DNA of 64,000 nt, taken from assembly GCA_001724265.1 (NCBI GenBank), contig MEDY01000052.1, forward strand, positions 62,001-126,000, in the 5' to 3' direction. The position numbers and the translations under genes are program-made. This DNA is from Rhizaria sp. SCN 62-66. Its lineage: Eukaryota. This document shows positions 20,050 through 62,620 of the stretch, one piece after another (position 1 is the first letter of the stretch; each line of letters opens with the position of its first letter). Below the pieces are notes generated by a model that saw only the letters and a program-made list of their open reading frames with translations, had not been told where the DNA came from and did no database searches.

Positions 20050-20476
20050 TCTTGTTGGAGTTAAGAGGCCACGCAAGAGCACTGATTGTAGATCAGAGGA
20101 CACTTAACAACACGTCAGAAGGCAAAACTCGTGGGATGGCTGCTGGTGCGATCGGAGGGTCATGACGAGGGAGAGACCGGCGTGATAGGACGAGGACGGT
20201 GGATAGAAATCGGTGCATAGTGAGCCAAGACGTTGGGTTTAGAAAGTGATCAATTGGTATGATAGCCAAAGATTAGATATTTACCAATAAACCATGACAA
20301 AACCTTGTTTAAACGATGGTCAGCAGAGATATCGAGGCTGCAAATGTCGCCTCGCAGGGCCGACAGGGCCCACGGTCAGTGTGGCTCGGCGGCGAGAGCC
20401 AAGTTTCCCGCCCAAGGTCGTGAGACTTCATCAAGGTATATATGGGTGAAAACTCCGTCACAGAGTCCCACAAAAG

Positions 20477-21214: not shown

Positions 21215-22098
21215 ATCAGCTGACCACCGTGTTTTAGCTCTTTTTGCACATTTTGCATCGCCTCTGGCGGTCGCTGCTCATACTTTAACACAACCCACGC
21301 TCGCAAACGTGTGTTCTGTATGTGAAGCTGCCTTGTTAGCGCCTCTGTTGCGCCTCGTTACGTTAGTAAACTCGCTTATTACAGCCCACGAACATTCAAA
21401 ATTAAAACAAACAAAATACTTTATTCCAGACCGACAGATAAAGTCATCGATACACAACAAAAGTAAGACTTGAAGCGAATAGTGTTTGATATGGGTGCTT
21501 TGTATTGTTTGTAGAAAAGTAATATCACGGGGACATCCATTTATAGTATAATAGAATAGAACGCACGTCGCGATTATAAACAAAAAGAGAGAGCCAGACG
21601 TGTCCTCACTCGTCGCGCAATCAGCAAAGAAACTAAACAGCTGCTGCGGCAACAAAAGCTTGGCTGGCAAATAAATCACCTCGGCGGCGGTGGATGCAAA
21701 CGGCACCTGCACCGGCTGAGGGGTGGGACTATTGGATAGGAGAGGCCTCGGATCGCTCGCGCCCCCCTCACGCGCACGAGTCACACGACACCAGTCAACG
21801 GGGACTGAGAGAAGATGCTGCGTATGCGTCAGGAAGACGAGAGCAGAGGCGGCGGCACAGTGAGTCCGTCACTGCGCCGCGGGGCCTGTGAAAATAAAAC
21901 TGGCTATATAGGTCTATGATACCAAAGCACATGTTGTGTCAGAAATAGAATCGGAGAAGAAACGAGAGAGGTCGAGGCAGGTGAGAGGAGGATTCGAGCA
22001 AGGCAGGCGGAGAAGATGCGAGGTTCAGGGTGCATCAAGGCAGAAATTGGCCATGGTGCGGTTGCGGAGGGGGATTATAGTATTAAAGAAAGTAGTAG

Positions 22099-22184
22099 TG
22101 CTCACTCAGAGTTTGTTCAACATTTGAGACATATAGCGAAGGCCGTAGCCCTGCCATTCCAGGAAAAAAGTGTCATCACGAGCA
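22099..22184 (-). ncRNA. Candidate intronic box C/D snoRNA
   Basis: Minus strand reads TGCTC-GTGATGA (box C, 22179-22173)...CTGA (box D, 22109-22106)-GT-GAGCA with a 5-bp terminal inverted repeat, inside a putative 3'-UTR intron (22296-21886). No target identified. Confidence 0.45.
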
Positions 22185-22369
22185 ACCCTCGCAAAAGTAA
22201 CCAACTGGTCCCTATGGATTCCCATGAGGAGACTCACATAGAGATCGGTGGAAGACAAAAGCTTGTCAAGGCGTAAAAGATAGAGAGTGGACGTACCAGG
22301 TTGCCCGATAATGTAGATGGGCGCAACATAAGAAGAGGGAGGAGGGCAGACGAGAGATCGGCAACCAAC

Positions 22370-22894
22370 TTAGTCGGAGCCGATGTACTCGACGAACTCG
22401 GGCACCTCCTGGAGAAGCTGGCGGAGGTCGGGGTCAGCGATGCCGGCGAGGCGGTCGCCGGGAGTAGCGACAGCGACGGGCGCAGCAGCGACAGGGGTGA
22501 TTTTGGCGACTATTGGAAGCGAGAGAGAGGAGCAGAGGGTGATTAGAAAGAGAGCGGCGTGAGCGACGGTTCGTGGGGGCAGGGATCTGCGCGGGCAAAC
22601 AAAGAGGCATATGAGGCGCAAGATGTCAAAAGTATAGACGTACTCGCAGCGTCCTTCTTACCCTTACCGATGAAGTAAGAGATAAGGCCGGTGTAAAGGC
22701 CGATGACGCCAATGACCTCCTGTGAAAGCGAAAAAACAAAACGGGCGGGGTGGTCTCGGTGAGCTCCAGAGCTTGGGTGATCGAGGGATGATCGAAAAGG
22801 GTCTATACAGCGCGCACGCGAAAGTGCGGAAAGAAATACGTACCTGCTGAGCAGAGGTGTAAGCGCCCAGAATGCGGGTCGACAAAGCGGACAT
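22370..22894 (-). CDS. Small single-pass membrane protein (~88 aa), possibly an ATP synthase subunit k/DAPIT-like mitochondrial protein; exons 22894-22844, 22719-22644, 22509-22370
   Basis: Spliced product MSALSTRILGAYTSAQQEVIGVIGLYTGLISYFIGKGKKDAAIAKITPVAAAP...EFVEYIGSD. Two GTACGT...AG introns; one TM followed by KGKK; stop TAA. The family call is only a resemblance. Confidence 0.65.
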
Positions 22895-24026
22895 CACGGG
22901 AATGTGTTTGTGAGGCTACAACGAAGACTGAAACTTGGCCCCAGGTCACCACCCAAAGCCCAGCCCCACCCAGCCTCCCACTAAGAGGGCCGGGTACTTA
23001 GTCCCACGGTCACCAAGCGGCTCACAGTCTATCCTTCTTGTGGGCGGTCATAAACAAGAAGAAATCACAGGCTAGAAACAATCCTTTGTGATTAAAGTTA
23101 GCTTGCCGACGTTGTGCTACTGCAACACATATTAATATATGTTGAATTCCTTTGGAACGCTGAAATTGTTCTAGATCTATCTCTGTGACCGGTCGTGTCA
23201 TGAGACCTGGCTCGAGGATCTCTCGGATATGCGGAGTGTCTTCATGCTCTATATGTAAATGGTTTTTGTATGCTATAGATTAATTTGCGAACTATTATTT
23301 GTTTAAATTTCACACGTCCTAGCAATTGTTGTAGCTCATGATTCTGATGATGAATCAAGGGCCCTAACGGTTACAATCGCTTGTAGCAACGATATCTGGA
23401 GTAGGTTTTGCTTGATCAAACTATTCAATGGTTGTGCAGATACTAATCGCTGTGAACTGTGTTGAGATTCTATAATTTCCTAATTGCGTTTGCTTTGCGC
23501 TCCGACGGCTGTTTAAGGTGATTCACACCCAGGATGTGTCGTCTTATCATAAGAGTTATATCATAGCCAGAGCGTGATTAATTATTTTGCGCTATTTTTA
23601 ATTAAGCAAGGCAACATTCTCTGCGATATCAACAGTTATTTGGTGACTGATGTAGTCATAGTCTTGCAACAGTGCCTTCACGACAACATGACTAACCCAT
23701 GAAATTGGGTTGATCTGGCACTAAATGTGGTTACGAGTGTGAATTAATCATATTTTGTTAATCAGAGTGGAATAGAATATACAATATCACAAGTCCATAG
23801 ACAAAAGACGTGTTTGGAAGGTAGATTGAAATGATTTTGATCCAAATTGATTTCTATTTTTTTCCGGTCCTCGGTCGCACTCGTTCTCCCGCGCCGCCGC
23901 AGAGTCGTTGGCGATGAGATGGCGAAACAAAAGTGCGAATTCCTGTGTCAACACTCCGTTAACAGCACTGAGCTTGATTGTTCTAGAACATCCACAGAGG
24001 GACATTGATACTTGCTTAATTCACAC

Positions 24027-27000
24027 ATGTACGGTGTCGGAACCAAGCTGCAGCAGTCTGTGCTCGGCCACGCTGTGGTGCCTCAGGGCCCCGCGCCCCA
24101 AGCCCCGCTTGGCGAGGTCACGCTGGGTGAGATCGACTACACTCTCGTCACCATGACACCCCACGAGCGCACTGACGTCGCTTCACGCTTTGGCGCCTCC
24201 AAGGTACGCTCTACCTCATATCATTCTTTCATATCCTTTCGTTTGTCGTCGAAATAACAATGCCCACTATTTATATTTCACTTTGCCACCGCCACCGTTA
24301 CCCGTACTCACACACAATGTTTACAACTTGCCTGTTATGCTCTTAATCACTGTTAGCTCTACGCTCCCGCCCGCGTGCCCGCCGCGTCTGCGCGCCGCCC
24401 CACTTCTCGCTCCATCCTCCTGCGCGCTCCCCCCGCACTCACCTGGGCCCCGTCCCCGTTCTCCACCGCCGCATCCTGGCTCTCCGCGCTTTCCGCGCGC
24501 GCCGCCGCGGCCCCGCTTGCGCGCTTTCTCTCCGGCGCCTCCGCGCCCGTCCCCGCGCTGCCAGCGCCGCGCATGACCAACGGCGCCGCTCCTCCCGCCT
24601 TTGCCCTCCACCCCGCATTGCCCACGTACGCAGTCGCGCAGCCCGACGGCGCAATCGCGCTCTGCGCCATCTCGGAACTCGAGCTCGCGAGTCCCACCGG
24701 CTCCAGCGGCGGTTCCGGCATGCCTGGCGCCCCGCTGGCCGTGTTGAGCCACGAGTTGCACGGCGCCGCGGTCCGCGCGCTGGCCTTCTCGCCCGCCGGC
24801 GGCTGCCTTCTCGCCGCCGCCTGCGACGCCGGTGTCGCGCTCTGGTCCGTGCCCCCGCTGCCCCTCGCGCGACCCGCTGCGGGCTCCGCGTCGGCCGCGG
24901 CGGCGGCTTTGGCCGGGGGCGCGAAGGGCGCGGGTCGCCGCGGCGCGGTGGCGGGGGCGCGCGTGCCGCTCTCCGCGCTGTCGCCCACTCTTAAGACCCC
25001 CGGGAAGCTCTTTGGCGCGCGCGCCGCTGCGGCAATGTTTGTCGCGTCTCCGGCTGGCGCTGCGCTGGTCGAAGCCGCCGGCGCCGGTGCACTGCTTTCT
25101 CACAACTCTGCGAACGGCAACAGCAATGCGTTGACTGTGGGCGGCGGAGGTATCGGTAACGGCGCTGCTGTGCAGAACGCCAACATCGGCACAGGTGTTG
25201 CGCCGAGCCCGCTGCCCACCCTTATCTGGCTGCCACACCCCGACTACACCAGCCATAGCAGCAGCTCCGCCTCTGCGTCCGACTCGAGCCCGCCGCAGTC
25301 GCATTCGCAAGGCTCGCGTCCGTCCGCTGCCGCCGTGGCCGCCGCCGCCACGGGCGCGAGCCTGTCTTTCTCCCCCTGCGGCTCGTACCTCTGCGTCGTC
25401 ACCGGCGCCGCGCGCGTTGGCCCCGGCGCTGCGGCCACGGTCAGTGACGGTGAGCTCGAAGGCCGCGTCGCAGTGTACGACGTCGCTCAGGCCGTGCGCT
25501 ACGCGGCCGCCTGCGCGCGCGACGACGCCAACACCGCCGCCGCCGCAGCAGCTAATGCAAACGCCGTTTCTTCGTTATCTTTGTCGACGTCTTCCTTAGG
25601 CGGTGCGAAGAGTGGGTCGCTCGTGGGTTCGCTCGCCGCTGCGGCCCAGAGCGCGCTCAATTCCCTTTTGGCGCCGCCTGCGCTAACCCACACCGCGCCC
25701 GGCGCTCTGTCGGCCGAAGTGCCCGAGACCTCGTCGAGCTCCGCCGTGGCGAGCGGGCTCGTGTTCACGCGGAGCTACCGCGGCGGCGTTGCGGGCGCGT
25801 GGTGGTCGCCGCGTGGGTCGAAACTGCTCGTCGCGCCCGCCGCCACTGTCACCACCGCGACCGCCACCGCGCCCGCTGCGACCGCCGTGAGCAACAAGCA
25901 CCGCGATGGCAGCACCGGAAACGATGTGACGACTGTGGGCTCGTCGGGCGGGTATTTTGAGGTTCTGGCCACGGAGGACTGGTCCGGCGCGGCGTTCGCG
26001 ACCTGGAACGGCCTGCCCCTGCGTGCCGCTGCCTGGGCGCGCGACGACGCGACCGTGCTTCTGGCCGCCACGATGTCCTCTCAGATCCACGCTCTCACCG
26101 TCGCTGCGGCGTTGCCGACCGAGGACGCAGACGGGCCCTTCGCGGGGTCATCCGCCGCTGCGGCGGCGGCCGCTGCGGGCGCCGGCGCTGGCCGCGTCCG
26201 CCGCCGCGGCGCCACGACCCTGGCCGGCGCCGCCGCCCGCGCGGGCGGAGGCATCTTCGTCGGCGGACAGGCCCCCGTTCTGCTCTCCCGCGCGCAGTCG
26301 CAACAACACCAGCAGCAGATCGCGGCGCTGGGCGCGGCGCCCGGAGGCGTGCTCGCCCGGCTCCCGCTCGTAGGGTCGCTTGCCGCGGCCGTCGCAGGCG
26401 TCTCCGCCGCGCTCGCGGGCGCCACCGCACGTTTCGCGGTGTCGTCGTCGCTGTTCCTCGATCTCGCCGACGCCGCCGTCTCAGGCCCCGGGGTGAGTAA
26501 CGGTACCGGCACGCTCGCGGGGCTGTGCGTCGGCGGTCTGGCGTGGAGCCCCTGCTCCGAGCGCCTCTGCGTGACGCTCGCAGCGCCCCCGCGTGGGGCT
26601 CGCGTCGTCAACGCCCCGCTCCGCGCGACAACGTTTGCTGACGTCATCGCGCCCGCGGCCGATGCCACCGCCGCCGCGAGCGTTGCCGCCGCGACTGGGA
26701 ATGACGTGGAGGGGCTGTGCGGACTGGCCGCGCTGTTCCACACGCCGGCCTCGTCCCCCGCCGCGGCCGCCGGTGGAGGTGGCGGCGCCGGCTCCGGCGC
26801 GGGCGCGGGGCGGCCCATCTTGTTGGGACTGCTGCGCGGCCCGTCGCCGCTCGCCGTCGCCGCGTGGCGCCGCCGCTGCGGTCAGCGCTCCGGCTCTGGC
26901 CCCTCTTGCCCCGCTGGCTTCACTGACGCTGGCGCTGGAGCTGGCCACGCGACTGCGACTCCCGGCGGTCGCAACGTGCGCTGGGGTTCCTCTCTCGGCA

Positions 27001-28065: not shown

Positions 28066-29496
28066 TTAGGTGGGCTTGAGACGGATGATCTTGCCGACGC
28101 CGATGGTCTTGTTCTTATCACGCAGCGTGAAGCGGCCGAGCGAAGGGAAATCCGCAAACTTCTCGAGCGCAGTGTGGTCGTCAAGCTCCAGACGGACGAT
28201 GCCGATGGAGCCGACCTTGAGGAACGGGGGGTGCTCCTTGGCGACAGCGCCCTTGCGGTCGAGCTCCTGCACCAGCGCGCGGACCTTGACCTCGACGGTG
28301 GCCGAGTGCACGTGCATGACGCAGGTGAAGCCGTTGGTGACGACGGGGATCTGGGGGTTGAGGTCAGTGATCATGATCTGCGCCTCGATCATGTTAGAGC
28401 GGTAGCCGGGCTTAGTGGCCGGGCAGAGCACGTGGCCCGAGCCAATCTCGTCCTCTTCGATGCCCTTGACGTCGATGATGACGTTGGAGCCGGCGGGGGC
28501 GACGGTGACGGGCAAGTCGTTGCACGTGATATTGACGATCGACACCTTCTTGGCCGTGGGGACGACGATGAGCGAGTCCGTCGCGTTGAGGATACCGGAC
28601 TCAACCTTGCCGATAAGCGACACGACACCCTTGTCCTTGTAGCGGGCAGAGATGGTCACGCGGAGCGGGGAACCAGTGGGACGCGAGATGGGCGGCATGT
28701 CGTCGAGCGCCTGGAAGAATGTGGGACCCTGGTACCAGGCACTCGCGTCAGACTTGAACGCGTCCTTGACGTTGGCGCCTGTGAGCGCGGAGACGGGGAT
28801 GAACTGGTACTCGGACGAGGAGAAGTTGTACGACTTGAGGGCCTTGGTGAGCTTCTTGGCGATGTCGTCGTAGCGCTCCTGCGACCAGTTGACGGAAGGA
28901 TCATCCATCTTGTTGATGAGCACGAACAGGCGCTGCACGCCCATGGTCTTGATAAGCATCATGTGCTCGAGCGTCTGACCGCCCTTCTCGAAGCCGGCCT
29001 CGAACTCACCCTTGCGGGCGGAGATGACGAGGCAGCCGACGTCGGACTGCGACGCACCAGCGATCATCGAGGGAACATACGCGTTGTGGCCGGGGGCGTC
29101 GAGAAGCGTGTAGCGCTTCTTCTCGGTCTCGAAACCGGCCTTGCCGCACTCGACGGTCTTACCACGCGCGCGCTCCTCATCGGACGTGTCGAGAATGTAG
29201 GCGAGATACCACGACTCACCCTTCTTCTCGCGCGCCTCCTTCTGGTAGCGCTCGACGGTGCGCTTGTCGACCTGGCCCGTAGTGAGCAGGATCTGGCCGG
29301 ACATACTCGACTTACCGGCGTCGACGTGGCCGATGAAGACGATGTTGACGTGCTCGCGCTTGTCGTTGACGTCGGAGGGCGACATCGGGGAGAGCGGGGA
29401 GCCGGAGTCCTCAGGCGCGGACGCGGCGGTCGTCACCTCGGCGGCCGTCGCCTCGGGCACGGCGAGCTCGATCTTGTCCTCAGCTGGAGCAGACAT
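28066..29496 (-). CDS. GSPT1: Eukaryotic peptide chain release factor 3 (eRF3/GSPT/Sup35)
   Basis: REHVNIVFIGHVDAGKS, ESWYLAYILDTSDEERARGKTVECG, LLDAPGH, ISARKGEFEAGFEKGGQT, INKMDDPSVNWSQERY and the C-terminal GRFTLRD eRF3 motif. Stop TAA. Confidence 0.93.
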   Translation of the reverse strand: MSAPAEDKIELAVPEATAAEVTTAASAPEDSGSPLSPMSPSDVNDKREHVNIVFIGHVDAGKSSMSGQILLTTGQVDKRTVERYQKEAREKKGESWYLAYILDTSDEERARGKTVECGKAGFETEKKRYTLLDAPGHNAYVPSMIAGASQSDVGCLVISARKGEFEAGFEKGGQTLEHMMLIKTMGVQRLFVLINKMDDPSVNWSQERYDDIAKKLTKALKSYNFSSSEYQFIPVSALTGANVKDAFKSDASAWYQGPTFFQALDDMPPISRPTGSPLRVTISARYKDKGVVSLIGKVESGILNATDSLIVVPTAKKVSIVNITCNDLPVTVAPAGSNVIIDVKGIEEDEIGSGHVLCPATKPGYRSNMIEAQIMITDLNPQIPVVTNGFTCVMHVHSATVEVKVRALVQELDRKGAVAKEHPPFLKVGSIGIVRLELDDHTALEKFADFPSLGRFTLRDKNKTIGVGKIIRLKPT

Positions 29497-43690: not shown

Positions 43691-45976
43691 ATGGACCGCC
43701 GCGCTGCCACCCTGGTTGAGCTCACCAACCTTTCCGCGGCCCCCGCGCACGGCGACTCGGTGCTGCGCGACGCGTGCCGCCGCGGCGACGTTACTTCAGC
43801 CACGAAAGCCCTGACTCGTGGTGCCAACGCGTCCTCGCGCGACTCAGACGGTGAAACGCCGCTCCACGCGGCCGCACTCGGAGGTCACTCGCGTCTGGTT
43901 GAGCTTTTGCTTTAGGCGGGCGCTGATCCGTCTGCAGCGGCTTTCGCGACTCTGGAGACGCCGCTGCACTACGCAGTGTTGGCAAACCACCTCGCCGCCG
44001 CCGCCGCGCTCCTGCTCTCCCCCGCCTCCTCCACCGCGGCCCCCGCGTCAGCCTCGGCGCTTCGCGGCTCCGCGCGGGGTGCTCTGTGCGCGCGCGACGC
44101 TGTGGGCCGGTCAGCGCTGTACTGCGCGGTTATGATGGGCCGGCCTGCGTTGGTGCGGCTGCTGCTGGGTTGCGGCGCCGACCCTAACGAGGCCGGCGGG
44201 GCTTACGGGCACTCGCTCATCTGGACCGCGGCGTACTACGCGCAGCCAGAGTGTCTGCAGCTGCTGCTTGCGGCGGGAGCCTCGCTGACACCAAAGCAAT
44301 CCTCGCACTCTCCTGAGCACACATCGGCTGAGGGCAAGACTGCAACGGCCGCTGCGGCGCCTCACAGGAGTCCGATCGACGGCGCGAGCGCTGCGGCCGC
44401 GTCAGGCGCGCTGCCTGACGCTGCCTCTGCGGCCGCTGTTAGTCTCGCTGATGCCCTAGGCAAGCTCACAATCACCGAGGCCAACGCCGACAAATCCGAT
44501 GCTGCGGCGGCGACTGGTGGCTTTGTGTCATCATCGAGTCCTGTGTCGACGGGGCCTCGCTCGCCTGCGCCGCTGCTGGGCGCCGCGATCGCGATGCGCT
44601 CGTCCAACAGCGACCTCCGCGTTCCCGTGACCAGCAGTGGCAGCGGCGATGCGCGTGGCTCCAGCCTCGGTCACGGTCGCGGTCACGCGAATGTAAATAG
44701 CCTGTCAAGTGCAGGGTCGCTCGAGTTTGAGCACGTTGCGCTACCGGGCGACTACAGCGCGGGCTCAGAGGGCGACGACAGCAAGGACCACAGCGGCGGA
44801 CCCGCGTTTATAACCGCGACTACCGTGGCTGTCGCAGTACCAGGGAATGGCAGTGCACTTGCGCCGCCCCAGCAGTCTGCGACGACGGCGACGATGACCG
44901 TGGCGAATCACGTCCAGTTCGTGCCGCCGTCTGAGGACAGCTATTTCCCGCTTGAAGCCGCCGCGCGCTCTGGTGACGCGCCCACGGTTGCGCTTGTGCT
45001 GCTCGCCGCCGCGCGCACAGAGGCCGAGGCGAACGCCGCCGCGTCACCACAAGCAACGTCATCATCTTTGTCAAGTCCTTCTTTTGCTGCCACGGTTGCT
45101 GGCTGGTTCTCGGCCGCCACTGCAGCCGTTACAGGCTTTAGCGCCGCCGACAACACCGCTGCGGACACTGCTACAGACGCTGACGGCGCCGAGCTGCGCG
45201 CCGACGCCGCCGCCGTGGTCGCCGCCGCATGCTCCAGCCTGCCGCGTGCGCCTGCGGTCGACGAGCCCACGCGCGCGCGCGCCGCGGCCGCGCTGGCCCG
45301 CCTGCGCGCGAGCGCCGCCGTGCGCGCCGCGCTGTCGGCATCGAACCCTGCCGCGGGGGGCTCGTTCCCGCTGTGGACGGCCGCAGCAGGCGGCCACGTG
45401 CCCGTCGCGGCGGTGCTGCTGGCGGCCGGCGCCGCTGCGGGGCAGCGCCACGTCGTTTCGGGAGGCACGCCGCTGCATTGCGCGGCCGGCGACGTCGCTG
45501 GCGCGCTGGGCGGGGGACCGGGCGCCTCGGGCGCGGGGGCCCCCGGCGGCGGGCGCGCCGCGGCCGAACTCGTGGCACTATTGACTCGCTGCGGCGGCTC
45601 TGGCTCGGGGTCTGGGCTAGAGGCGCGCGACCGGCGCGGACGCACTGCGCTCCACACTGCGGCGGCGCGCGTGGAGCCTTCGGTGGTCTCTGCACTCCTG
45701 CGCGCGGGCGCAGACCCATTGGCGGAGGATACCATCGGGCTGACGCCGCTTGGAGTAGCGCGCGACGCGGGCGCGGAGGGACTCACCAAGGCCATGCTGC
45801 TGCGCGCGACCAGGGCTGCGCTGGACGCACGCAGGGCTGGAAAGCATTCGCAACAACAGCAGCATTCGCAGCAACAGCAACAGCAGCAGCTGCAGCAGCA
45901 GCTGCAGCAGAAGCAGAGAGGACCTACAAAGAAGCGCGCTGGCTACGAGGAAGAGGAAGAAGAAGAGGAGCAGTGA
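43691..45976 (+). CDS. Ankyrin-repeat protein with one in-frame TAG (43913-43915) and a poly-Q/poly-E C-terminus
   Basis: GETPLHAAALGGHSRLVELLL[TAG]AGADP, then ETPLHYAV, GRSALYCA...LLLGCGADPN, GGTPLHCAA, GRTALHTAA, GLTPL. ORFs 43595-43915 and 43976-45976 share a frame with no other stop between them. Stop TGA. Confidence 0.87.
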
Positions 45977-48655: not shown

Positions 48656-49054
48656 TTTAAATTATGATACTTAAATCCGTAATCAAGCTGCGGATTCGTC
48701 TCACTACACATATGACGTGAACTAGCCGTTTGGGTATCCTTCCACCACAATCGCAAGCCAAGCCTTGGCGCCCTTGAGTGACTAACTTCAAACCAAATTT
48801 CGGCAGGTCCAACGCTGTCAGTTGAAGATGAAACTTGAATATATATATTGAATATATTGGCAGCATATCATATCCATTTTTTAAATCTAAGCTTTGTTTT
48901 TAACTTCGTTTTTCGCTTCTTCCTCTGTTGCTGTTCAAGACTCTTCACCAGACCTTGAAGCTGTTGTGTATTTTCTCGTCCAGCACCTGTCTTTGAGGCA
49001 GTGTGCGTTTTTATGGACTGCGAGAAGTGTGCCTTGTAACTACCACTGCTTGTT

Positions 49055-49640
49055 ATGGCCGAGTGGAACGTGATAAGCTCTCAGGTGGCGATCACCGCAG
49101 CCGCGGGCGGCGCGCGCATCCCGCAGCAGTCACGTTCATCAACTTTCAACTGTTGCTATGCGCTGCGCTCGCTGAACCCGTCTTTCCCGCACTCCACCTA
49201 CATCGGTTTTACCAACAACCCGCGGCGGCGTCTGCGGCAGCACAACGGCGCGCTGCGCAACGGCGCGCGCGAGACGTCCCGGCGCCGCCCCTGGGAAATG
49301 CTTGGCTGCGTGCACGGCTTCCCCAACCCCATCTCGGCGCTCCAGTTCGAGTGGGCGTGGCAGAACCCGCACCGCTCGCGTCACGTGCGCGCCGCGCTGG
49401 CGGGGCAGTCGTTCCCACGTGGCGCGCGCGGCACGCTGCGGATTGCGCTGGCGATGCTGCATGTGCAGCCCTGGGCGCGGCTGCCGTTGGCGCTGCATTT
49501 CACCTCGGCGGCGGCAGCTGAGCTCGCGCGCGGCGGCGGCGCGAGGGAGCCGCCGCGGCACGTGCCTGTCACGGTGGGGCCGCTTGAGACGTTGCCGTGC
49601 TACGCTGCGCGGCCCGCCGGCGCGAGCGAACTGCTCGACA

Positions 49641-49723
<83 letters not shown>

Positions 49724-51993
49724 TCAACGATGACGACGGAGATGGCGTGAGCAGCGGCCGCGACGCGGACGAGGGTGATGCTGGTGACGGTGACGGCGAC
49801 GGCGGAAATAGGTCGCGTCACGGTGGGTTTTTGCTGACTCAATACTTCCCCGCCCATCGCGACAACCAGAACAGTAACAATGGCAGCGGCAATGGTGGCA
49901 ATGGTATTGAAGAGTACGGTGGTGAGTACGATGGCGACTTCTATCAGTACTACGCTCCACCCACGGACGGTGACGCTGACCTTAATGCTAATGGCGCCTA
50001 CGGTGACGGTCACCTGGCCGCTGCGATGGTGTCTGCGACTGCAGCAGCGGAAGAACATAAAAGCAGCAGCACTAACAACAACAACTTCGACTATGACGAC
50101 GACGACAACGACGACAGTGAAATGGGCCGGTGGCTGCGCGAGCTCACTCAGCCGCCCGCAGCGCCTTCGTCACCGCTATACACGCCCACACCAACCCTTC
50201 TGCAGTCATCATCCGCCGTCGACTTTGCGCAATCCTCGTCCGCTGCCAACGCCTCCGCCGCCCTGCAGTCCTCTGCTACAGCGCCGTTGCAGCAGCCTAC
50301 GCCGCGTAATGCGTTCTCGCTTTCACAGTCACATGTGCAGCTGCCTGCCCCAGTGAGGCGCGCGCCCTTTGCCCGCCCCGCGTCCGCCGCTTCTGGCACT
50401 GCTACGACAGCTACGATTGTGACTAGTTCTCACTCTGGTGCCGATGTCAGTGGCACGCTGTCGCGCACGTCGTCGCTCTCGCTCGCGCGCGCCCCGTTAT
50501 CCCGTGCATCGTCGGCGTCACTATTCTCCGATCCAGCGTTTTCTTCCTCATCCTCTGCAGCAGCAGCAGCATTGCCAACCCTCGGCGCTGGTGGCGTGTC
50601 CGATGGTGTGGCGTTGCCGGCGACCGTGCGCGCCGCCGCCGCCACAGTCCTGCGCATGCTCGCCGGCAGCGCCACGGGCGCCGACGCCGCCGCGCTCGCC
50701 GCCACGGGCGTCGCACCGTCCTCCGCGGCCTCCGCCGCGGCGGCCGCCGCTGAGGCCGCGCTCCCGCGCTGCGCTGTGTGCCGCGACCCCGCGCCGCTAC
50801 CGCGACCGCCGCTGCCCGCGCCGCTGCCCGGCGCCGGTGGGGACGCCGCCGTGGCGCGCCTGCTCGCCTCCGTCGCCGCCGCGCCGCAGTGGCTCGAACC
50901 CCCCGTGTCTGCCGCGTTGTCTGGCGTCGCTGCTGGCGGTGGCGGGAGTGGCCCGCCGCGCGCGCCCGTGGCAGTGCAGTTCTGCACCGCTGCCGCGCTC
51001 GTGCCCGTCGCCGCCGCCGCCGCCACAGGGATGGCCGCAGTGCGCGGCTGTGGGGCGTGGGCGCACCGTGTGTGCCTTATCCGGGCCTTTGCACAGCAGG
51101 CGGAGGCCTCGCTCGCGCCCTTTGACGCAAACGCACCGCAAAACAACACGGCATTGGAGGCAGAAAACGACAAGCCTAAGGGTAAGGGCAAAGGCAGCAA
51201 GAGTAAAGGCAAAGGCAAAGACCTATCTGTATTCAACACTCCTGTAGCAACCACGCGCGCGCCCCCGAATGCCGGCGGCATCGATGACGGCGATGACGGT
51301 GCTGCTGCGGGGAGCGCTGCTGCAACTCTGGCGCCGTTGCTGCCGTTCTCGTCGCCGCACCTGCGTCGCCGGTGCGCGGGTGCGTGCCGCGCGCCGCTGC
51401 TGCCCGCCGCGGGGCTGTGCCCGTGCTGCCGTGCACCACTGATGTGGGCGCGCGTTGTTGCCGCTGCCACGGCCGCGCAGGAGCGCCGCGCCGCCGCGTA
51501 CGCGCTCGCCATGAAGACGCTCCGCAAACACCTCAGCACAACCGCTGCTAGCGGTGCGGCGGGCGAGTCCGGCGCTGATGCCGGGGGCGGGCGGCGGAGC
51601 AAGCAGGGCGGGATTAAGCGCAAGGGCTCGGGCACGGGCTCCGCTTGCGGCACGACTGCGAGCACGTTATCTGCCGTGTCCGCTGGCCCGCCGGGAGCGA
51701 TTTACGCTAAGGCACGCGCGCTGTCGCGGGCGTCGTCGCTCTCGCAGCAGCAGGCGCTCTCGCAGCAGCAGGCGCCGGCGCAGGAGCGACAGGCACAGCC
51801 GTTGTCGCAGACCGCTCATGTTGCGGCGGCGTCGGGGGCTCCGTCACTGTCGCTGTCGCAGCCTGGAGCGAATCGCGGACACGAAGCAGACGCGATAAAC
51901 GCTGGAGGAGCGCTGTCGCACGCGCGCGCGCTGGGCGCCATTGAGGAGGAAGGCGACATTGCGGGCGTCGATGACGATTGGGGCTGGGAGTGA
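49055..51993 (+). CDS. SLX1: Structure-specific endonuclease SLX1 (GIY-YIG plus split C-terminal RING-like domain) with an apparent frameshift near 49724
   Basis: CYALRS...[18 protein letters not shown]...GA..T...RPWEM...[18 protein letters not shown] in ORF 49055-49750; CAVC...AH..CL...PLLP..GLCPCC...LMW in ORF 49597-51993; the frame changes right after (GAC)27. Stop TGA. Confidence 0.85.
49643..49723 (+). repeat. (GAC)27 perfect trinucleotide microsatellite encoding poly-Asp
   Basis: 81 nt of uninterrupted GAC within SLX1. Confidence 0.95.
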
Positions 51994-52559: not shown

Positions 52560-55211
52560 ATGGACCCTAACCAGGCCGCCGCGCGCGCGCTAGTCGAGCT
52601 GTTTTTGAGTGACGCGAGCATCCGCACGTCGACACGTCTGAACCGCATCTACTCTCGCGCCACCGGTCCTGATGTATGGATCCCACTCACTTACTTCACC
52701 GCCTTTAAGTGTATTCGCGCGCTTTTGCCGCCTGCGCTAGGCCCGACCACCCCGCTGCTTGACGTCGTGTCATTAGGAGTCCCACCACTCGCAGACGGCA
52801 CTGTGTCCACTGACAACGGTCAAACACAGGAAATGACAAGCGACGACAGTGTCAGCAGCGCCAAAACCATTCAAGACCCCGCCTCTATAGCTGCGACTTT
52901 CTCCTTTATGATCAACGCATTGGAGAGCTCAAAGCTGCTTTGTGTGGACGCGGATTCACAGAGTATTTCGCGCCGGGCGCCCTACAACGGTGCAAACGTC
53001 GATGTGGATGCACACTCGGTGCGCGCTCGTGGATTACCAAGCAGTTGGCGTTTTGAGCATGCACGTGCGTTTTTTGCGGCTAAAGGACTTCCACTTGTTA
53101 ACCTTCTTAAAGATCCAGTTCGTAAGTGCAGCAACAATAACTCAAACGGCGAGCGTCATAACGGTGATGGTGCGTGGCTCATCTTCGCAACTCCAGAGCA
53201 CGCCATCGCTGCGGTTGAGGGCCAATTCGAAGCTTCTCATAAGGATCACATTAGTAGCAGCACTGATAATAGTAACAACACGAGCAGCTACAACGAGGGC
53301 CCCATTGATGATAAGAACAAAGCCGCGATGCGCCAACTGCACCTGATTTCCAAGAAACAGTTTGTCGCGCAGACCCAGGATAAGCGGTCGTCAGCGGCCC
53401 GCATCCTTGGGGCTCCAAAGAAAGCCACTGCCTTTGCTGGACCGCCTTGCACTCGGAGCGCAAAGCGTGCTACGCACGCTGCCAGCTCAGCTGCTGCTGC
53501 TCCTAGTTGCGGCGGCTCAGGACAGAGCAGCTCTGCGACGCTGACGGCCAGCGTTCGTGTGTCACGTCAACAGGCCGATCACAATGAGGACTTGCTTGGA
53601 CACCGTAGTAACAACAGTACTTGCACCGGCTCGGCGTTGCAGCCCGTTGTGGCCCGGGCCAGCGATAGTGCGAGCAGCACTGACTCCCATTCCAGTGGTT
53701 GTGACAGTGCGGGCGATAGCACCGACAGTAACAAGCGTGATAGCTCGAGTGACAAGCAGCCCGTGTTCACGAAAGGCTACCTGCTCAAAGTGCATGGCGT
53801 GAGCGGTAGTCGTCGTGTGGTCCGCAACAACATTGCACGCTGGCTGGATGATATCCCTGGCTGTTGCGGCACGACTGTCATTAGCTACAGCACTGGTAAC
53901 ATCTTTGCCAACGTTGCGCTTACTCCTGATTCCAACGCACCTACTGCTGCGGCTGTTGCGCGCGTGTTTAACGCGCGGCCTGCAAGTGAACGCTGCATGC
54001 GCGAACAATCCGGAGAAGTTGCCACTGCTGCAGGGACGCACACCCGCGCGCGATCAGACGGGGTGAAGTTCATGCCCGTGACCCCCGAAGCTGAGACTGA
54101 GCTTTGGGCGACGTTGATGCGCCGTCGGGCCCGCGCCAATAATCGTCGCTCTGCTATTGCCGCACGGGCCGCACACACCCGCAACAGCACGAGTGACTGT
54201 GATGCGAGCGTTATGCAGAACGGTACTCGAGGACGGGGTGATGCAGCGACTTCGCAACAGTGGCGGAACGAAGGAACATCCGGCCCTTCAATTGTTACTG
54301 AGCAAAACGTGCAGCTCATGCATCTGGAAAACGGCAACAACTTTGCGTTTGACGCCAACTATAACACAACTCACCCCAGCAGCAGCTTCCTTAGGGCACC
54401 TGAATATCCCGCTCATCAACAACATTACACAGAGCCCACTGCGCACCACGGGCATTACTTGCAACATGGCCACGCTGCGACATATGCCAACGGCTTGCCG
54501 CATGCGTTTTCTGTGCAATACGCGCAGTACGGGCCGTACTCGCAGCAATCTGTGTTTATTCCGCATCGCGGTCACAGCGATCATCGCTTCACTGTGCAGC
54601 AAAACCAACAGCCACATGTGCATTACAACCAGCACGCGCAGTTGCAAGTGCACTGGGGCGTGCCTAATTACTATCCCGCGTATGCACATACGCATGAGCA
54701 GGCACACGTTCAGGCGCAAACACAGGCACAGACACCGGCGCAGACGCAGGCGCAGGCGCAGGCACAGGCACATGTGCAGACGCACACGTCTACCAACTAG
54801 CAGTCGCATTATCTTGAGGTGTCATCGCATCACAGCCACCGCCAGCCAACCGGGGCAGCGCCGCAGTACCTGCAGTGGCATTATCCGTCGCACGGACATC
54901 AGCTTGTGCACTACCACGGCCATTATGAGGTTCAGCGCACACACCAACCGCCGCTCCAGCACTCTCACCGCACAGACTATTAGCAGCAGCGGCAGTTCAG
55001 TGCGCAGACGCGGCACCACCAGCAAGAGCGCGGGAACCGCAGTGCTCGCCACACGCAGCGGCACAGTAACTTGCAGCAACAGCAGGCGCAGCAACTACAC
55101 CCTCATCGGCAACCCCAAGAGAATCCTCACTGCCAGAGTCAGCAAGATTCCCAGCAAAATCAAAGAGCGCAGCACGGACAACAAGGCGGTTTTGGCAAAA
55201 GGAGACACTAA
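52560..55211 (+). CDS. Divergent La/LARP7-like RNA-binding protein, paralogue 1 (La motif, RRM, xRRM-like, His/Gln-rich tail); two in-frame TAG codons
   Basis: LVELFLSD...WIPL...FKCIRAL...ALESSKLLCV...ISRRAPY (La motif); DVDAHSVRARGLP...FF...WLIFATPE.A (RRM); FTKGYLLKV...ISY..GN.FANV...E.ELW (xRRM-like). The Gln/His-rich frame continues through TAG 54798-54800 and 54981-54983 to TAA 55209-55211. Confidence 0.75.
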
Positions 55212-56261: not shown

Positions 56262-57299
56262 ATGTCTCTTCCGACGCGCAATGCGGAAGCGCTATGCACC
56301 TTGGTAGACACACTGCTATGCGACGCAAGTGTAGCAACCTCGGACCGCCTCCGTGATCTTTGTCCGCCAGGGTCCAGCGGCTGTGTGCCACTATCTTTCC
56401 TCCTTGGCTTCCGATGTGTGCAGGCCTTGACCACAAGTCCGAGTGCGCTTGCAGCTGCATTGCGAGCGTCAACGCAGCTCTGCGTGGCAGATGATAGCCT
56501 CTCAGTGTCCCGCAGGACTCTCTTCATCCCTGAACAGCTCGATTTGACTGCACACACTGTCCGTGCTTGTGGAATGCCTGCGGCATGGCGCTATGAGCAT
56601 GCACGTGTGTTCTTTTCCACGCGCGGACTTTCGCTCGTCAACAAGCTAACCGTGCGCACAAAGCACCCGCGCCGTCGCGCAGCAGTGGCAAAGTGCGGCC
56701 AGCTCTCAGTTGACGCCGCCGCAGGTGGTGTTGTTGTCCCACGTGAGCCCTCTGGCGAGGATAAAAACAGTGACGGTGACGATGGCACCCTCCCCACTCC
56801 ACCACAGCCAGCCTGGCTTGTTTTTGCGACTGCGGACGACGCTAACGCCGCCGCTGCGGCCTTCCCAGGCCCTGTGGACGGGACCGCTGCGGTGGCCCGC
56901 GTCGCGACCACGGACGGCGACAAAGAACCGCTCGACGCTCCACTGCTGGTGCTCACTCTCAAGCGTGACTATCTGGCTGCTGCGCTGGCCGCACGTGCCC
57001 CGCGCAACGCCGCCGCCCCGCGCGCGCCCGTGTCGCCCGCGTCCGCGCTCGCCGCCGTCGCAGCGGCGCCAGCAGTCACGCAGAAGGCAGACTCGCCCAA
57101 GCGCGCCACAACGGGGATTATCACGAGTACTGCTCCTGGTGACGCTGAGACTTGTACTGCGGCAAACAGTGGCGGTAGCGCTACTGTGAGCCATGCTGTT
57201 GCATCCGTTCCCGGCGATCAGTCTCCCGCCAGTGACGGCGCTGCGCTACGGCCTTCACAGGCGCCTGCGGAGTCGCTGCCACAGGCAGTTGCCGAGTGA
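56262..57299 (+). CDS. Divergent La-like protein, paralogue 2 (La motif and RRM only)
   Basis: LVDTLLCD...CVPL...FRCVQALT...ALRASTQLCVADD...VSRR; DLTAHTVRACGMP..WRYEHARVFF; WLVFAT. Clearly similar to both neighbours. A possible intron 57296-57367 would extend the CDS to TAA at 57470. Confidence 0.7.
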   Translation: MSLPTRNAEALCTLVDTLLCDASVATSDRLRDLCPPGSSGCVPLSFLLGFRCVQALTTSPSALAAALRASTQLCVADDSLSVSRRTLFIPEQLDLTAHTVRACGMPAAWRYEHARVFFSTRGLSLVNKLTVRTKHPRRRAAVAKCGQLSVDAAAGGVVVPREPSGEDKNSDGDDGTLPTPPQPAWLVFATADDANAAAAAFPGPVDGTAAVARVATTDGDKEPLDAPLLVLTLKRDYLAAALAARAPRNAAAPRAPVSPASALAAVAAAPAVTQKADSPKRATTGIITSTAPGDAETCTAANSGGSATVSHAVASVPGDQSPASDGAALRPSQAPAESLPQAVAE

Positions 57300-57632: not shown

Positions 57633-58115
57633 TTCTTGTGTAATTATGTAACATTTTGCGCGTAACAAATGACTTTCAACGACGTGCTGTGCGCGTTATA
57701 TGACTCAAGGGCAAACTACCCGACTGGAGGCGCTCGAGGTAACGCGAGACTAAACAGCGCACCAAGCAGTCAGCATGAACAAGTTCGCCGTTATTTATGC
57801 TTGGTTGTTTTGTGCAATATGCGTTCGACAATATCTATCGAGTAGTATGTATCTTATGTAGAACTCACTTGGGTCATACGTCCGAATGCATGAGAAGTTC
57901 ACTGCCTTTGTGGCCGACGTGATAAATCTATTGCATTTTGCGGACTATCTCGTTGAAAACCTGTACAAAACCCTTGCGCGAAGTTAAATGTATGTACACA
58001 TAAAATACTTATTGCGCGTGCGATTTACTTAAAAGAATAAAGTTTCATCCCGATGCACCTTCATAGGTCATAAAGGCAAAAGCTTTCTCGCCAGGAACTG
58101 GGCTGCAGAGCCCCA

Positions 58116-58161
58116 CCAGTCCATTCCAGCCCGTGGGCCCAGTCCAGTCCAGCCCGTGGGC
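58116..58161 (+). repeat. 23-bp tandem duplication (2 copies, 1 mismatch) upstream of La paralogue 3
   Basis: CCAGTCCATTCCAGCCCGTGGGC followed directly by CCAGTCCAGTCCAGCCCGTGGGC. Confidence 0.85.
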
Positions 58162-58372
58162 TATCTTATACGAAATGCGTCAGCCGTTGAATTTATTGCA
58201 AGCGGCTGTACGAGATATTCGACGGTGAAAATGTTCTGTTCATAACGATTCCAGTCGTGTAGCTCACTTTAATATCTATTTAACTTGTTGGATTTCCTTT
58301 GCTCTTTATTTTTGTGTCTGTGTGGAGCAGGAAAGTTGCTCAAGCTGTTAGTCGCTCTCGGCAGCAGGCTCC

Positions 58373-61300
58373 ATGCAACTTTCACCCTCCACGGCCCTGG
58401 AGATATGCAGGTTGATAGATTTATTTCTGTCAAACGTTAGCATTAAAAGCTCGCGCCACCTTCGCACCCTTCACAGTCAAGACCCCGTTGCTGCTGTACC
58501 TTTGCATGTCTTCGCACGTCTTCGATGCATCTCGAAACTTGCGCCGTCCATGGAGATATTGACTGAAGCGCTACGCTCGTCTCCGGACTTTCGAGTGAGC
58601 GCGGACGGGCTGCACGTATCTCGCATCACGCCCTACTCTGGCGACGATGTTGATTTGACTGCGCACTCGGTTTGGGCGTCCGGCTTCCCCTCTTGGTGGA
58701 CTTTCGAAGATGCGCGTCTCTTCTTCTCTGCGCACTCGCTCACGCTTGTCGGCAGCACGGCGGCAGGGAAGCTGTCTTCCGCACCCCGCGTTGCGACTGC
58801 ACTTGCGACGCCCTGCACTACACCTTCTAGCAGCGACACTGACGCCATCAAACGGACTCGTCCACCCCGTATGCTTGTCGAGAGCCTTGACAGCGGGGAC
58901 TTGAGTGACGACAACTCGTTGGATGACACTTGGACTGACGAGAACCCGCGTGACGCCGATACCGAGTTCCCTATCCCCACGGCTGCTGTTGTAGTGTCCC
59001 GCCCGCGCTGGCTTATCTTCGCAACACCAGAGGATGCTGCGCGCGCTGTCGCCAGCCACTTCCTCGTCAGTGCCACCCGAGAGCACGCGCCCGACGGGCC
59101 AGACGCCGCGATGATGCTGCCCGTGACACTTGTGTCCAAGACTGAGCGCCGCGCCGCCTCTACCGCCGCTGTTTCTGCCCCCAGCCGCCGCAAGACGGGT
59201 CTCGGGCCCGAGCCGGAGAGCAGCGAAGACAGCGACGAAGCTCCAGTGACCGAGAGCACTGTGCGGGCCGCAGCTGCGTGTCCCGCTGCCGAGGGCCTTC
59301 TCGCCGACGGGCTCAACGACGCAGTCTCCACGATCAGCACGCTGCCCCCACAGCAACAGCCCCCGTCGCAGTCGCTGTCGTAGTCTCAAGCGCAGCAGTC
59401 CCAGTCCCTCTCCCTGTCACAGTCCAACTCTGGCTCCCTAAGCGCTTCTGCCACGACGCCGCCCGGCCCCAACACGTCCGTGTCTGTCTCCTCTGGTCTG
59501 CATAGCAGCGACACGCGCTGCGAGTCGACAGCCACAATGGCGGCCGCGGGACTACAGGCGACGATGCCCTTTGTGCCAGGATATCTGCTCAAAGTCGATC
59601 ACGTCTACAGCAGCGACGCGCGTGCCATGCGTCTCCTCATCAACAACTGGGTTGCTCTGGCCACTTCCGCACCCGCACCCGCACCTGCGGCTGCGCCCGG
59701 CTCCGCCTCTGTCTCGGACGCTGACGCGAGCGCGAACGCCAGCGCGAGCGCGGGCGACGGCGCCGCGGCTCTGTCCCCCGTGTCATCTGCGCTGCCCAGT
59801 GCGCCGGCACTGCCCACGTCCCCCTCGCTGCACCTGGTGCTGCCGCCGCATACGATGCAGGCGATGCGGCGCGCGGCCGCGCTTGTGGTGCGTCTCATCA
59901 GCTACAAGCCAGGAAACACTTTCGCCAACATCATCCTCGACTCCAGCGGGCCCGCGCCCGTGACTGCGGCTGACCTCGCTGCGCGACTCAACGCGCTGCC
60001 CGCGCGCATGCGCACGACATACGGCCCGCCGCGCGCCGCCGCCCAGGCCGCGCAAGCGCAGGCGCAGGCGCAGGTGCGGCCGCATTCGCAGGCGCAGTCG
60101 CGGTCGCGGTCGCAGGCCTAGGGTGCGACGCGCCGTGGTTCTGCTGCCTCAAGCAGGAGTTCGAGCACTGGCTCGAACGGCGGCTCGCGCTCTCGTTTGG
60201 GCGACACAGCAACGGGCGCGAGCGCTGGCGACGTTGTCACAGAGTCGGACATTACCTGTTTGACGGGCGCCGCTGCTTCGGCCGCGTCGGAGGCTGCAGA
60301 CCCCGCGGCGCTGCCGCCAGTGAGCGCCGCCGTTGCAACAACAGTCGAACCATCGACTTCCGCGCTCGCCCCAGCCTCGGCTCTGCCGTCGTCATCAGCC
60401 CCGGCAGCGATGTCCACGGCAGCGGCGCCCGCGACTACCGCCTCCGCGGGTGTGTCCGTGCTCCCTGCGACCGCTGCGACGGGAAGCGCCAGCACCGGCG
60501 CGGTGCAGCGCGTCGCACTCGAGGCCACGTTCGCGCCCGTTGCGGCCGAGATGGAGGAACGTGTCTGGGCGTATCTGCTGCGCTGCAAGGTCCGGACCGA
60601 GACGCGCCGCACAGACCCGCAACGGTCCGGCATGCGTGGCTCGGGATCGCACCCGCAACCGCATCAGCAGCCGCATCAGCACCAGCACAGGCACCAGCGG
60701 CAGCAGCCGCAGCATCAGCAGCAACAGCAGCAGCAGTGGGGCTACATCGGGAGCAACGCGCCGTCCGCGGCGAGCTCGTACGCATCACACTGGTCGCCGC
60801 TCGGTCAGCACGGCAACCACGGCAACCACGGCGGCCATGGCGCCGGCGCGGCCGAAGGCTACTACATGCCGGGCATGACTGGTGTGCCCGCGGCCACCGG
60901 CGGTGTGGCTACGGCGGCCTCACCGATGATGTACCTGCCTCAGGGGGTCGCGGCGACCGCGGCGGGCGTGTACGGCGCCCGCTACGGCCACACCGCGGCG
61001 CTGTCGGCGCAGTCGCCGATGCAGATGCAGATGCCGGCACAGACGCCGATGCAGATGCAGATGGCCGCGGAGGCGTCGGCCGGCATGAGCGGCGCGTCGG
61101 TGCCTGTAGCGGTGCCGGGCCAAGGCTATGTCGTGTGGGTGCCGTGTGCGCCGCATCACGTGGAGTCCGGTGCTGCGGCACTCCAGGGTCAAGAGCAGCA
61201 GTACTATCTTGCCCAGCAACAGCAGCAACAGCAAAAGCAACCACAGCCGCAGTCGTCTCAGCAGCAACAACAACAGTCGCAGCTTCATATTGCTCACACG

Positions 61301-62179
61301 CTGTCGAGCGCGCATTCGCACCCACATTCACACGCATCGACACCAACTCTGTCGACAGCGTCGTCACAAGTGTATGCGCAGACGCAACAACAGCAGCAGC
61401 AACAACAGCAACAACCGCAAAACTCCAACTTTAACCAGTCGCGCTCCCAGCTGCGCCAGCAGCGTTCGCAACAGCACCCAGCACACGCACTCGGCCAGAC
61501 AACGACTGGCGGCTCTAGCGCGGGCGACGCGCATGGGCTCGGTCACCACACCAACTACAGCCTGGGATCCAGCGCAAGCGTTAGCGCCGGTGCGGCTTCC
61601 GCTGCACAGGTATACACCTTGCCGCAATCCCAGTCTCTTTCTTCTCAACCGCAGCCACAGGCACAGTCGCACTCGCCGCACTTGTCGCCGCATCAGGCCC
61701 GCTCGCAACTGTTTGCTACACCACCGCAACAGCATCAATCGCTGCAGTTGCAGTCTCAGTTTCAGCAACTTTTGCAGCAGCAGTCCTATACGCAGCATGC
61801 ACAACTGCATGGTTCGACACCGCTTTATTCGCCGCCCGCCTCGCTGTCGCCGGCGCCTGCCGCTGTCGCACCAGCGTACTCCGCGCATCCGAGCTACACG
61901 TCGCCGCACGTCTCCGCTCGCCATACGCGCGCACACTCGAACTCGACCGCGTTCGCGACCCCTCAGTCACCGCAGCAGTCACAGCTCATGCTTCACGCAC
62001 AGCAGAGTTTGCCGTCCGCGTCTTCGTCATATTACGTACCGCAGACGCAAGCACAAACTCATACTCAGATGCAGACTCAGGCGTTGGCGTTGGCCCAAGC
62101 GCAGCAACTGGCGGCGCTTCAGACACAGGGCACACTGCAGCAGCAGCAGCAGCGGCAGCAGCAGCAACTACAACAACAG

Positions 62180-62220
<41 letters not shown>

Positions 62221-62620
62221 GCACGCTCAACTGCAGCTAGGGGTTCAGACGCTTCTGCCGCCGCCGTCGCCCTCGCACCGCGTTTCCGGCCACGGTCACG
62301 GTCACCATGGTCACAACTACGGTCATAACAACAGCTACAGCCACGCCCACGGCGGCGCCAGTAGCTTGCATAGTGGATCCGGGCGCCACCGCGCGTATAG
62401 TGACGCCGGTCGCAGTGACTCCGGTGACATTGCTACGGCGGTTTCTCTGGGCCCTCAGTCGCGCAGTGACGCTGTTGGCACGGATGACCGCAATGGGCAC
62501 CGCAACACCCGGGGTGGCCACGACAGTCGGCCTTCATCCCGCGGTGGGCGCGGCGGTGCCCGTGGGGCGAGCTATGACAGCCCAAACGATTTTTACAGTA
62601 GTGGCGATGGCCATTACTGA
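58373..62620 (+). CDS. Divergent La/LARP7-like protein, paralogue 3 (1415 aa; La motif, RRM, split xRRM-like, long poly-Q tail); two in-frame TAG codons
   Basis: ORFs 58373-59383, 59480-60121 and 60197-62620 are one frame broken only by TAG 59381-59383 and 60119-60121. Each segment carries a block matching paralogue 1 in the same order. Stop TGA. Confidence 0.8.
62138..62221 (+). repeat. CAG/CAA poly-Gln tract
   Basis: Near-pure Gln run in the tail of La paralogue 3. Confidence 0.9.

Follow-up and report, generated by a model that had tools for sequence, protein, structure and literature searches.

Three tandem genes for La-type proteins lie near the end of a 64,000-nucleotide (nt) stretch of DNA from Rhizaria sp. 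SCN 62-66 (assembly GCA_001724265.1, contig MEDY01000052.1, positions 62,001 to 126,000), and the third of them contains two in-frame TAG codons. We call the whole stretch the window and number positions from its first letter. Paralogues 1 to 3 are plus-strand genes that have a La motif and an RRM1-like region in common. Paralogue 3 occupies 58373–62620 (+, 1415 codons), from an ATG at 58373 to a TGA at 62618–62620, and nothing interrupts its frame except TAG 59381 and TAG 60119. With TAG read as a residue, the protein is laid out as La motif, RRM1, an RRM2 with two long insertions, and a Q/H-rich tail. The evidence from this gene and its neighbours indicates that the organism probably translates TAG as an amino acid, most likely glutamine, and terminates with TAA and TGA only. 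Paralogue 3 would then be a single unbroken gene encoding a divergent La-type protein, its TAGs ordinary but rare sense codons.

The two TAGs divide the gene at points of different character. TAG 59381–59383 (+, codon 337) falls in the linker between RRM1 and RRM2, where the guanine-plus-cytosine (GC) content is 0.69 upstream and 0.65 downstream, and 245 open codons follow it. TAG 60119–60121 (+, codon 583) lies inside RRM2, where about 170 low-complexity residues are inserted between the blocks for helix 2 and strand 4, and is followed by 832 open codons. Database gene calls at this locus end at the TAGs (P0127, 336 residues; P0129, 194 residues); each is found on five contigs, which argues against a one-off base error. 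The spacer directly 5' of the gene holds a short tandem duplication at 58110–58165 (+), with CCAGCCCGTGGGC present twice.

The part of paralogue 3 ahead of the first TAG is recognizably La-like. An earlier note on this DNA, made from the sequence alone, had placed a La motif and an RRM there, and a weak La motif and an RRM1-like region are indeed seen. The La motif (58406–58579, +, residues 12–69) is weak in Pfam (La, E-value (E) 0.0058, 16.9 bits), and the pairwise match to a bona fide La protein, P0128, is clearer (E 5e-9). Paralogues 2 and 3 score 16.9–18.4 bits against Pfam La, under the cut-off of 37.1. The RRM1-like region (58661–59056, +) is split by a low-complexity insertion; paralogues 1 and 2 align to it, as does the RRM1 of P0128, and it has no direct Pfam RRM_1 match. 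The N-terminal part as a whole matches paralogue 2 at E 1e-19 and paralogue 1 at E 3e-15.

Beyond the first TAG, paralogue 3 continues with blocks that match the C-terminal module of paralogue 1. The motifs of paralogue 1 lie in one stop-free stretch, as the earlier note described, with FTKGYLLKV at 53766, VISYSTGNIFANV at 53877 and FMPVTPEAETELWATL at about 54066. Their counterparts in paralogue 3 are distributed around the second TAG as it had reported. Between the TAGs stand FVPGYLLKV (59570–59596, +), the strand-1 block of RRM2 that aligns with FTKGYLLKV, and LISYKPGNTFANI at 59894, in the block of strands 2 and 3 plus helix 2 (LISYKPGNTFANIILD...TAADLAARLNALPA, 59894–60004, +). After TAG 60119, FAPVAAEMEERVWAYL is found at about 60527–60595, where the strand-4 and C-terminal helix block lies (TFAPVAAEMEERVWAYLLRCKVR, 60527–60595, +); through paralogue 1 its counterpart in P0128 is VPVFAVISGAEEEGVWAALEEKR.

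Pairwise comparison of the paralogues with TAG read through, which the note had proposed, aligned the pieces after each TAG colinearly to that module. In local alignment against residues 381–530 of paralogue 1, the score was 81 for the inter-TAG piece and 77 for the 200 residues that directly follow TAG 60119, and neither was reached by any of 500 composition-preserving shuffles (z 8.3 and 6.0). When all of paralogue 1 served as the target, 1 of 500 shuffles reached the score of the first piece and 3 of 500 that of the second. BLASTP against paralogue 1 found the ISY..FAN block, that of strands 2 and 3 and helix 2, at E 4e-5 and the last block at E 0.038; hhalign against a profile of paralogue 1 and a La protein gave E 1.5e-5 for the inter-TAG piece and 4e-4 for the piece after TAG 60119. 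The four blocks shared by paralogues 1 and 3 contain 36 identical residues, 19 of them written in differing codons, so conservation acts on the protein and not on the DNA. Of four MAFFT alignments, three put the last block of paralogue 3 in the wrong place.

The module probably corresponds to the second RRM of a bona fide La protein; in La, this RRM ends in a trailing helix. An exhaustive HMMER search with residues 1–537 of paralogue 1 against 1.84 billion representatives returned four proteins: the window's own three and the distant P0128. The latter matches Pfam La at 68.9 bits and RRM_3 over residues 209–299 at 29.3 bits (cut-off 22.9), and aligns to human La (9nf8_B) at E 2.3e-21 over its whole length, second RRM included. 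The C-terminal module of paralogue 1 aligns to P0128 residues 210–296 at E 1e-6, with a final motif in common (VKFMPVTPEAETELWATLMRRRA versus VPVFAVISGAEEEGVWAALEEKRA); the modules of paralogues 1 and 3 have no direct Pfam RRM_3 match. On sequence comparison, the four blocks correspond to the strands and helices that make up one RRM, together with the trailing helix. TAG 60119 would thus split one domain, in agreement with the earlier note, which had put it in an insertion within a single domain: the blocks on both sides match one RRM2. Termination at this codon would leave the protein with three quarters of the domain.

Structure prediction is compatible with an RRM and goes no further. An AlphaFold model of the paralogue 1 module from a two-row alignment shows strand-helix-strand-strand-helix-strand-helix, the expected order, at a predicted local distance difference test (pLDDT) score of 45.6. 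Foldseek of this module against the PDB gave no match at E <= 0.001, with RRM and LARP7 chains among the weak ones, and the read-through RRM2 of paralogue 3, modelled from its single sequence, gave no usable fold (pLDDT 40.7).

The other two paralogues differ in architecture. Paralogue 1 (52560–55211, +) carries La, RRM1 and a compact RRM2. Its stop under the standard code is TAG 54798; with TAG as sense, the frame runs past TAG 54981 to TAA 55209. Its GC content does not drop at either TAG and drops after the TAA, and the tail stays H/Q/Y-rich. Relative to paralogues 2 and 3 and P0128, its La motif holds an insertion of about 55 residues (52680–52890, +), which may be one reason why Pfam La has no match in paralogue 1. 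Paralogue 2 (56262–57299, +, P0126) consists of La and RRM1 only, 345 residues, and ends in TGA; downstream of it the GC content falls and no RRM2 remnant was found. A protein ending at TAG 59381 therefore has a precedent in the family, and full architecture alone is no proof of read-through. The earlier note had argued that the architecture of paralogue 3 is complete only if both TAGs are read; this stands for the paralogue-1-type C-terminal module and fails as a proof by itself. The case for read-through is built instead on conservation, frame maintenance and window-wide statistics.

Frame maintenance bears directly on one alternative, in which TAG is a normal stop, paralogue 3 was recently truncated to La and RRM1 with the rest decaying, and the other TAGs are nonsense mutations. 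The short architecture of paralogue 2 fits such a history, as do two features of the TAGs themselves: TAG is the commonest nonsense codon to be expected here (63–65%), and TAG 60119 resembles a C-to-T change of CAG. Yet the sequence downstream does not look decayed. From 59384 to 62617 (1078 codons) neither TAA nor TGA occurs in the frame of paralogue 3, which has a single TAG; TAA/TGA number 7 in frame 1 and 10 in frame 2. No frameshift was found in the gene, despite long repeats prone to insertion and deletion. A codon-usage score trained on nine other, best-conserved genes of the window (8600 codons) has its highest log-odds in the paralogue 3 frame from 58523 to about 60550 and again at 60700–61150, across both TAGs; in the Q-rich tail it does not separate the frames. 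Codon bias and GC content are undiminished past the TAGs. Frameshifts, mixed stop types and a loss of bias after the first lesion, the marks of a pseudogene, were not seen.

Gene ends across the window use TAA or TGA. The 18 that we listed comprise 7 TAA, 11 TGA and no TAG, a count in which TAA 55209 is taken as the end of paralogue 1 and the TGA as that of paralogue 3; without these two, TAG ends none of 16. The seven in-frame TAGs of the window do not behave like gene ends. Over the following 150 nt, GC content drops by 0.19 on average for the 18 stops and by 0.035 for the seven TAGs (Mann-Whitney p 0.003), and the median number of open codons that follow is 20.5 after TAA/TGA and 528 after an in-frame TAG (Mann-Whitney p 4e-4). 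A crude screen for TAGs with an open frame on both sides proved too noisy in GC-rich DNA and was left unused.

The most telling single site lies outside the La family, in an ankyrin-repeat gene (43691–45976, +). Its TAG (43913–43915) sits within the second repeat, GHSRLVELLL[TAG]AGADP, in the wider context DGETPLHAAALGGHSRLVELLL[TAG]AGADPS…ETPLHYAV. A start methionine lies 74 codons upstream of the TAG and is the only plausible start; the earliest ATG past the TAG lies partway through a later repeat. The TAG, at residue 76, falls inside the Pfam Ank match at residues 54–83, and Ank_2 improves from E 1.8e-20 to 2.9e-32 once the TAG is read through. The N-terminal ankyrin stretch matches 450 PDB chains and, among the alignments listed, passes ungapped through the TAG site. 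As evidence, this site is no weaker than the control offered by paralogue 3, and the same holds for the terminator statistics.

Two further TAGs, 3281–3283 and 1694–1696, stand in frame in an Ala-rich coiled-coil exon (2–4525, −) that runs off the window edge. They are followed by 528 and at least 564 open codons, with no drop in GC content. An intron at 4526–4655 (−, 130 nt, GTACGG…TTTAG, GC 0.38) joins exon 4656–5597 in phase to the Ala-rich exon, so the open reading frame (ORF) at 4656–5597 and the Ala-rich ORF form one gene of more than 1800 codons that leaves the window. If every TAG were a stop, four of about 20 genes would be broken, by TAG only, and in the ankyrin gene the lesion would fall after the start and ahead of most repeats, in a window where TAG ends none of the intact genes. 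Truncation by nonsense mutation is, on this evidence, a very unlikely account.

A second alternative would remove the TAGs from translated mRNA altogether, as parts of introns, by RNA editing, or as sequencing or assembly errors. Introns do exist here. A bacterial-type EF-P gene (17611–18591, +), presumably organellar, has two (17874–18121 and 18285–18414), both GTACG…CACAG, from which we took the splice-site model. Together with the coiled-coil intron they make three verified introns, which begin with GTACG, end with AG, measure 130–248 nt and have a GC content of 0.38–0.44. Two apparent in-frame TAGs on the minus strand (4644 and 4526) proved to be intronic, one 5 nt into the coiled-coil intron and the other its 3' splice site, and were rejected as sense codons.

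The seven TAGs that we retain look unlike introns: the 130 nt around each have a GC content of 0.62–0.72 and a coding score. No GTACG occurs on the plus strand between 58373 and 60119, leaving none upstream of the TAGs in paralogue 3, and this gene has only two looser 5'-site matches, both in its conserved La/RRM1 part and over 500 nt ahead of TAG 59381. We also considered, and discarded, short "introns" of the GT..AG form that would keep the phase and finish at the TAGs, since GT is too frequent here to be informative and real introns differ. In the ankyrin gene the repeat runs on unbroken and the TAG accounts for exactly one codon of it, and the TAG-truncated gene calls recur on five contigs. 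Absence of these codons from the message is accordingly the faintest of the alternatives that we weigh.

A third alternative grants read-through and denies reassignment: TAG would still be a stop, read through at some sites in a programmed or leaky manner, giving short and long isoforms. The extreme rarity of sense TAGs and their absence from the most conserved genes suit this idea, and a stop at 59381 would yield a plausible isoform resembling paralogue 2. Elsewhere the idea fares worse, because termination at TAG would leave only non-functional fragments of the ankyrin protein and of RRM2. The hexamers 3' of the seven TAGs (CAGTCG, CAGCAG, TCTCAA, GGTGCG, GCGGGC, ACCGTT and GCTGCT) have nothing in common, and TAG serves at none of the 18 terminators. 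Programmed read-through would be expected to show a common 3' context and the same codon as a terminator elsewhere, and the window shows neither. We hold a dual meaning of TAG to be highly improbable, if slightly less so than truncation.

Reassignment of TAG as a sense codon remains the favoured reading, and the surroundings of the TAGs speak to its meaning. TAG 60119 fills the CAG slot of a two-codon repeat: in the 11 [NCG][CAG] units before it, the second codon is CAA/CAG in seven, CGG in three and CAT in one. From this pattern it looks like a CAG with a C-to-T change. TAG 54981 opens the run TAG CAG CAG CGG CAG. The only TAG in a conserved column is that of the ankyrin gene, where 18 natural ankyrin-1/2 repeats among the alignments listed have E (5), D (4), Q (3), N (3), K (1), H (1) and G (1), with no hydrophobic residue, and designed DARPins among them have K. 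On balance we lean towards glutamine. Glutamate or lysine, taken jointly, is a lesser but appreciable possibility, and leucine is improbable, being disfavoured by the ankyrin site.

TAG is used sparingly, and its use tracks codon bias. We found 7 in about 13,000 inspected codons, only in genes with weaker bias. Gln-type codons in the four TAG-bearing genes number 233 CAG, 89 CAA and 7 TAG; in the nine training genes they number 179 CAG, 21 CAA and no TAG. The UAG share of Gln-type codons is thus roughly 2% in weakly biased genes and nil in the 8600 codons of strongly biased genes. GC content at third codon positions is 0.58–0.79 in the ORF pieces of TAG-bearing genes and 0.61–0.88 in the nine training genes (0.77–0.88 in eight of them). 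This scarcity and confinement to weakly biased genes fit a poorly decoded or recently captured codon.

Several observations weigh against reassignment or its assignment to glutamine. The sample is 64 kb with 7 sense TAGs and 18 terminators, and six of the seven TAGs lie in low-complexity or poorly conserved sequence. The nine best-conserved genes, with their 8600 codons, are free of TAG. From codon usage, the expected TAG share of random nonsense mutations is the 63–65% given above, so finding TAG in seven of seven cases has a probability of only about 0.05 when taken alone. Paralogue 2 is a naturally short La plus RRM1 protein with a real TGA, and the tail of paralogue 1 is by itself weak evidence, with 60 and 75 open codons and another frame open too. 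No tRNA gene was found in the window, and the structure models are too poor to show the RRM2 fold. The likeness of SQSLS[TAG]SQ to the nearby SQSLSLSQ, which the earlier note had raised as a caveat and which is present in the sequence as described, favours leucine at one site. Protein searches also gave no orthologue in which TAG columns could be compared: a word-indexed search with residues 1–530 of paralogue 1 matched only itself, and residues 1–760 of the read-through paralogue 3, searched against shorter proteins, matched only its own two fragments.

The remaining gene content of the window is eukaryotic, GC-rich and intron-poor, with genes on both strands and mostly without interruption; coding stretches have a GC content of 0.6–0.74 and spacers about 0.3–0.5. 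Besides those already named, it includes genes for ADAMTS-like (reprolysin and TSP1), WD/aladin-like, EMC1, myotubularin and SLX1 proteins, a Ras-type GTPase, a tetraspanin, a methyltransferase, a proteasome subunit and an EF-hand protein. The eRF3 gene (28066–29496, −) encodes 476 residues, matches human eRF3a at E 7.5e-134, and is intact and ends in TAA. Its N-terminal extension is very short, and a TAG stands directly before its ATG. In the protein collection, the nearest relative of this eRF3 has 80% identity and the best named sequences only about 50%; as a protein query, this eRF3 gave no confirmed locus in genome_contigs, and an exact 40-nt piece taken at the right edge of the window had no match there either.

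Some features of the window stand apart from the question of TAG. A 2229-residue ORF at 8633–15322 (−) combines a reprolysin-type metalloprotease domain with five TSP1 (ADAMTS-type) repeats, an architecture typical of animals, and could be a clue to the affinities of the organism. SLX1 is spread over two plus-strand frames, with GIY-YIG in 49040–49750 and the C-terminal zinc-finger region in 49588–51993; the two overlap in a long (GAC)n tract, which is poly-D in one frame and poly-R in the other. An intron could account for this arrangement, as could a true frameshift or an assembly error in repeat length. The region 16600–24300 has lower GC content (0.48–0.59) and few long ORFs, and may house intron-rich genes; small positive-scoring ORFs at 22370–22657 (−) and 24009–24257 (+) have no Pfam match. 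A repeat scan of the window found low-complexity families and no dispersed element, and an Rfam search of it matched no family. A trypanosomatid origin of the Blastocrithidia type was considered and rejected on the spliceosomal introns, alternating strands, TAA/TGA stops and high GC content.

Decoding of UAG as glutamine would call for a CUA-anticodon tRNA, for which tRNA-Gln(CUG) is the simplest source, and an eRF1 that recognizes UAG poorly; of the two release factors, eRF3 is present in the window and eRF1 is not. The resulting La-type protein would resemble human La, reached through P0128, in the order of La motif, RRM1, second RRM and then a helix with an E..E..W motif. Unlike human La, paralogue 3 is very divergent, carries low-complexity insertions in both RRMs and has a Q/H-rich tail of about 670 residues.

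This type of code change is already known, and the window would be a further case. Panek et al. 2017 (PMC5304391) describe two relevant nuclear codes. In Iotanema spirale, UAG means glutamine while UAA and UGA stay stops, and an eRF1 substitution, T32G, is discussed for it. The window agrees with it in that only UAG appears reassigned, true ends are UAA/UGA, apparent UAG ends are followed by a real stop, and glutamine is likely; it differs in being GC-rich, in using UAG much more rarely, in having a best named eRF3 only about 50% identical, and in that glutamine is here only favoured. In the rhizarian exLh, UAG means leucine: 384 in-frame UAGs in 71 genes stand mostly at conserved leucine positions, terminators are exclusively UAA (56) and UGA (15), and UAG is scarce in highly expressed genes (PMC5304391). 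A UAG-only reassignment and the scarcity of UAG in strongly biased genes liken our case to exLh. Unlike exLh, its sole conserved-column TAG falls at an ankyrin position that is polar in 17 of 18 listed repeats and never hydrophobic, which speaks against leucine.

The same class of change, from stop to sense in UAG alone, is described in two further papers, for several phyllopharyngean ciliates (PMC11687900) and for phages with genetic code 15, in which TAG means glutamine (PMC9523058). The window is unlike either in its ADAMTS-like, tetraspanin, myotubularin and EMC1 genes and its GC content of 0.6–0.7. Beyond PMC5304391, PMC11687900 and PMC9523058, full-text literature searches listed no GC-rich non-ciliate eukaryote with this code. 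The window may come from a lineage without a named sequenced relative, the best named eRF3 matches being about 50% identical, that reassigned UAG alone, independently, in a GC-rich genome and is still at a low-usage stage, a proposal that we make tentatively and rate as somewhat less probable than its negation.

Sense TAGs have a practical consequence for any protein set from this organism. Standard gene calling cuts at TAG, as in the 336- and 194-residue database entries, so its predicted proteomes would be systematically truncated. UAG-only nuclear reassignments are few, and an independent GC-rich case would inform how UAG and UAA uncouple. If the reassignment is real, a UAG that is rare and avoided in the best-adapted genes would show an early or inefficient stage of the process. 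Should the low-usage reading also prove true, the organism would offer a natural snapshot of a stop codon under capture.

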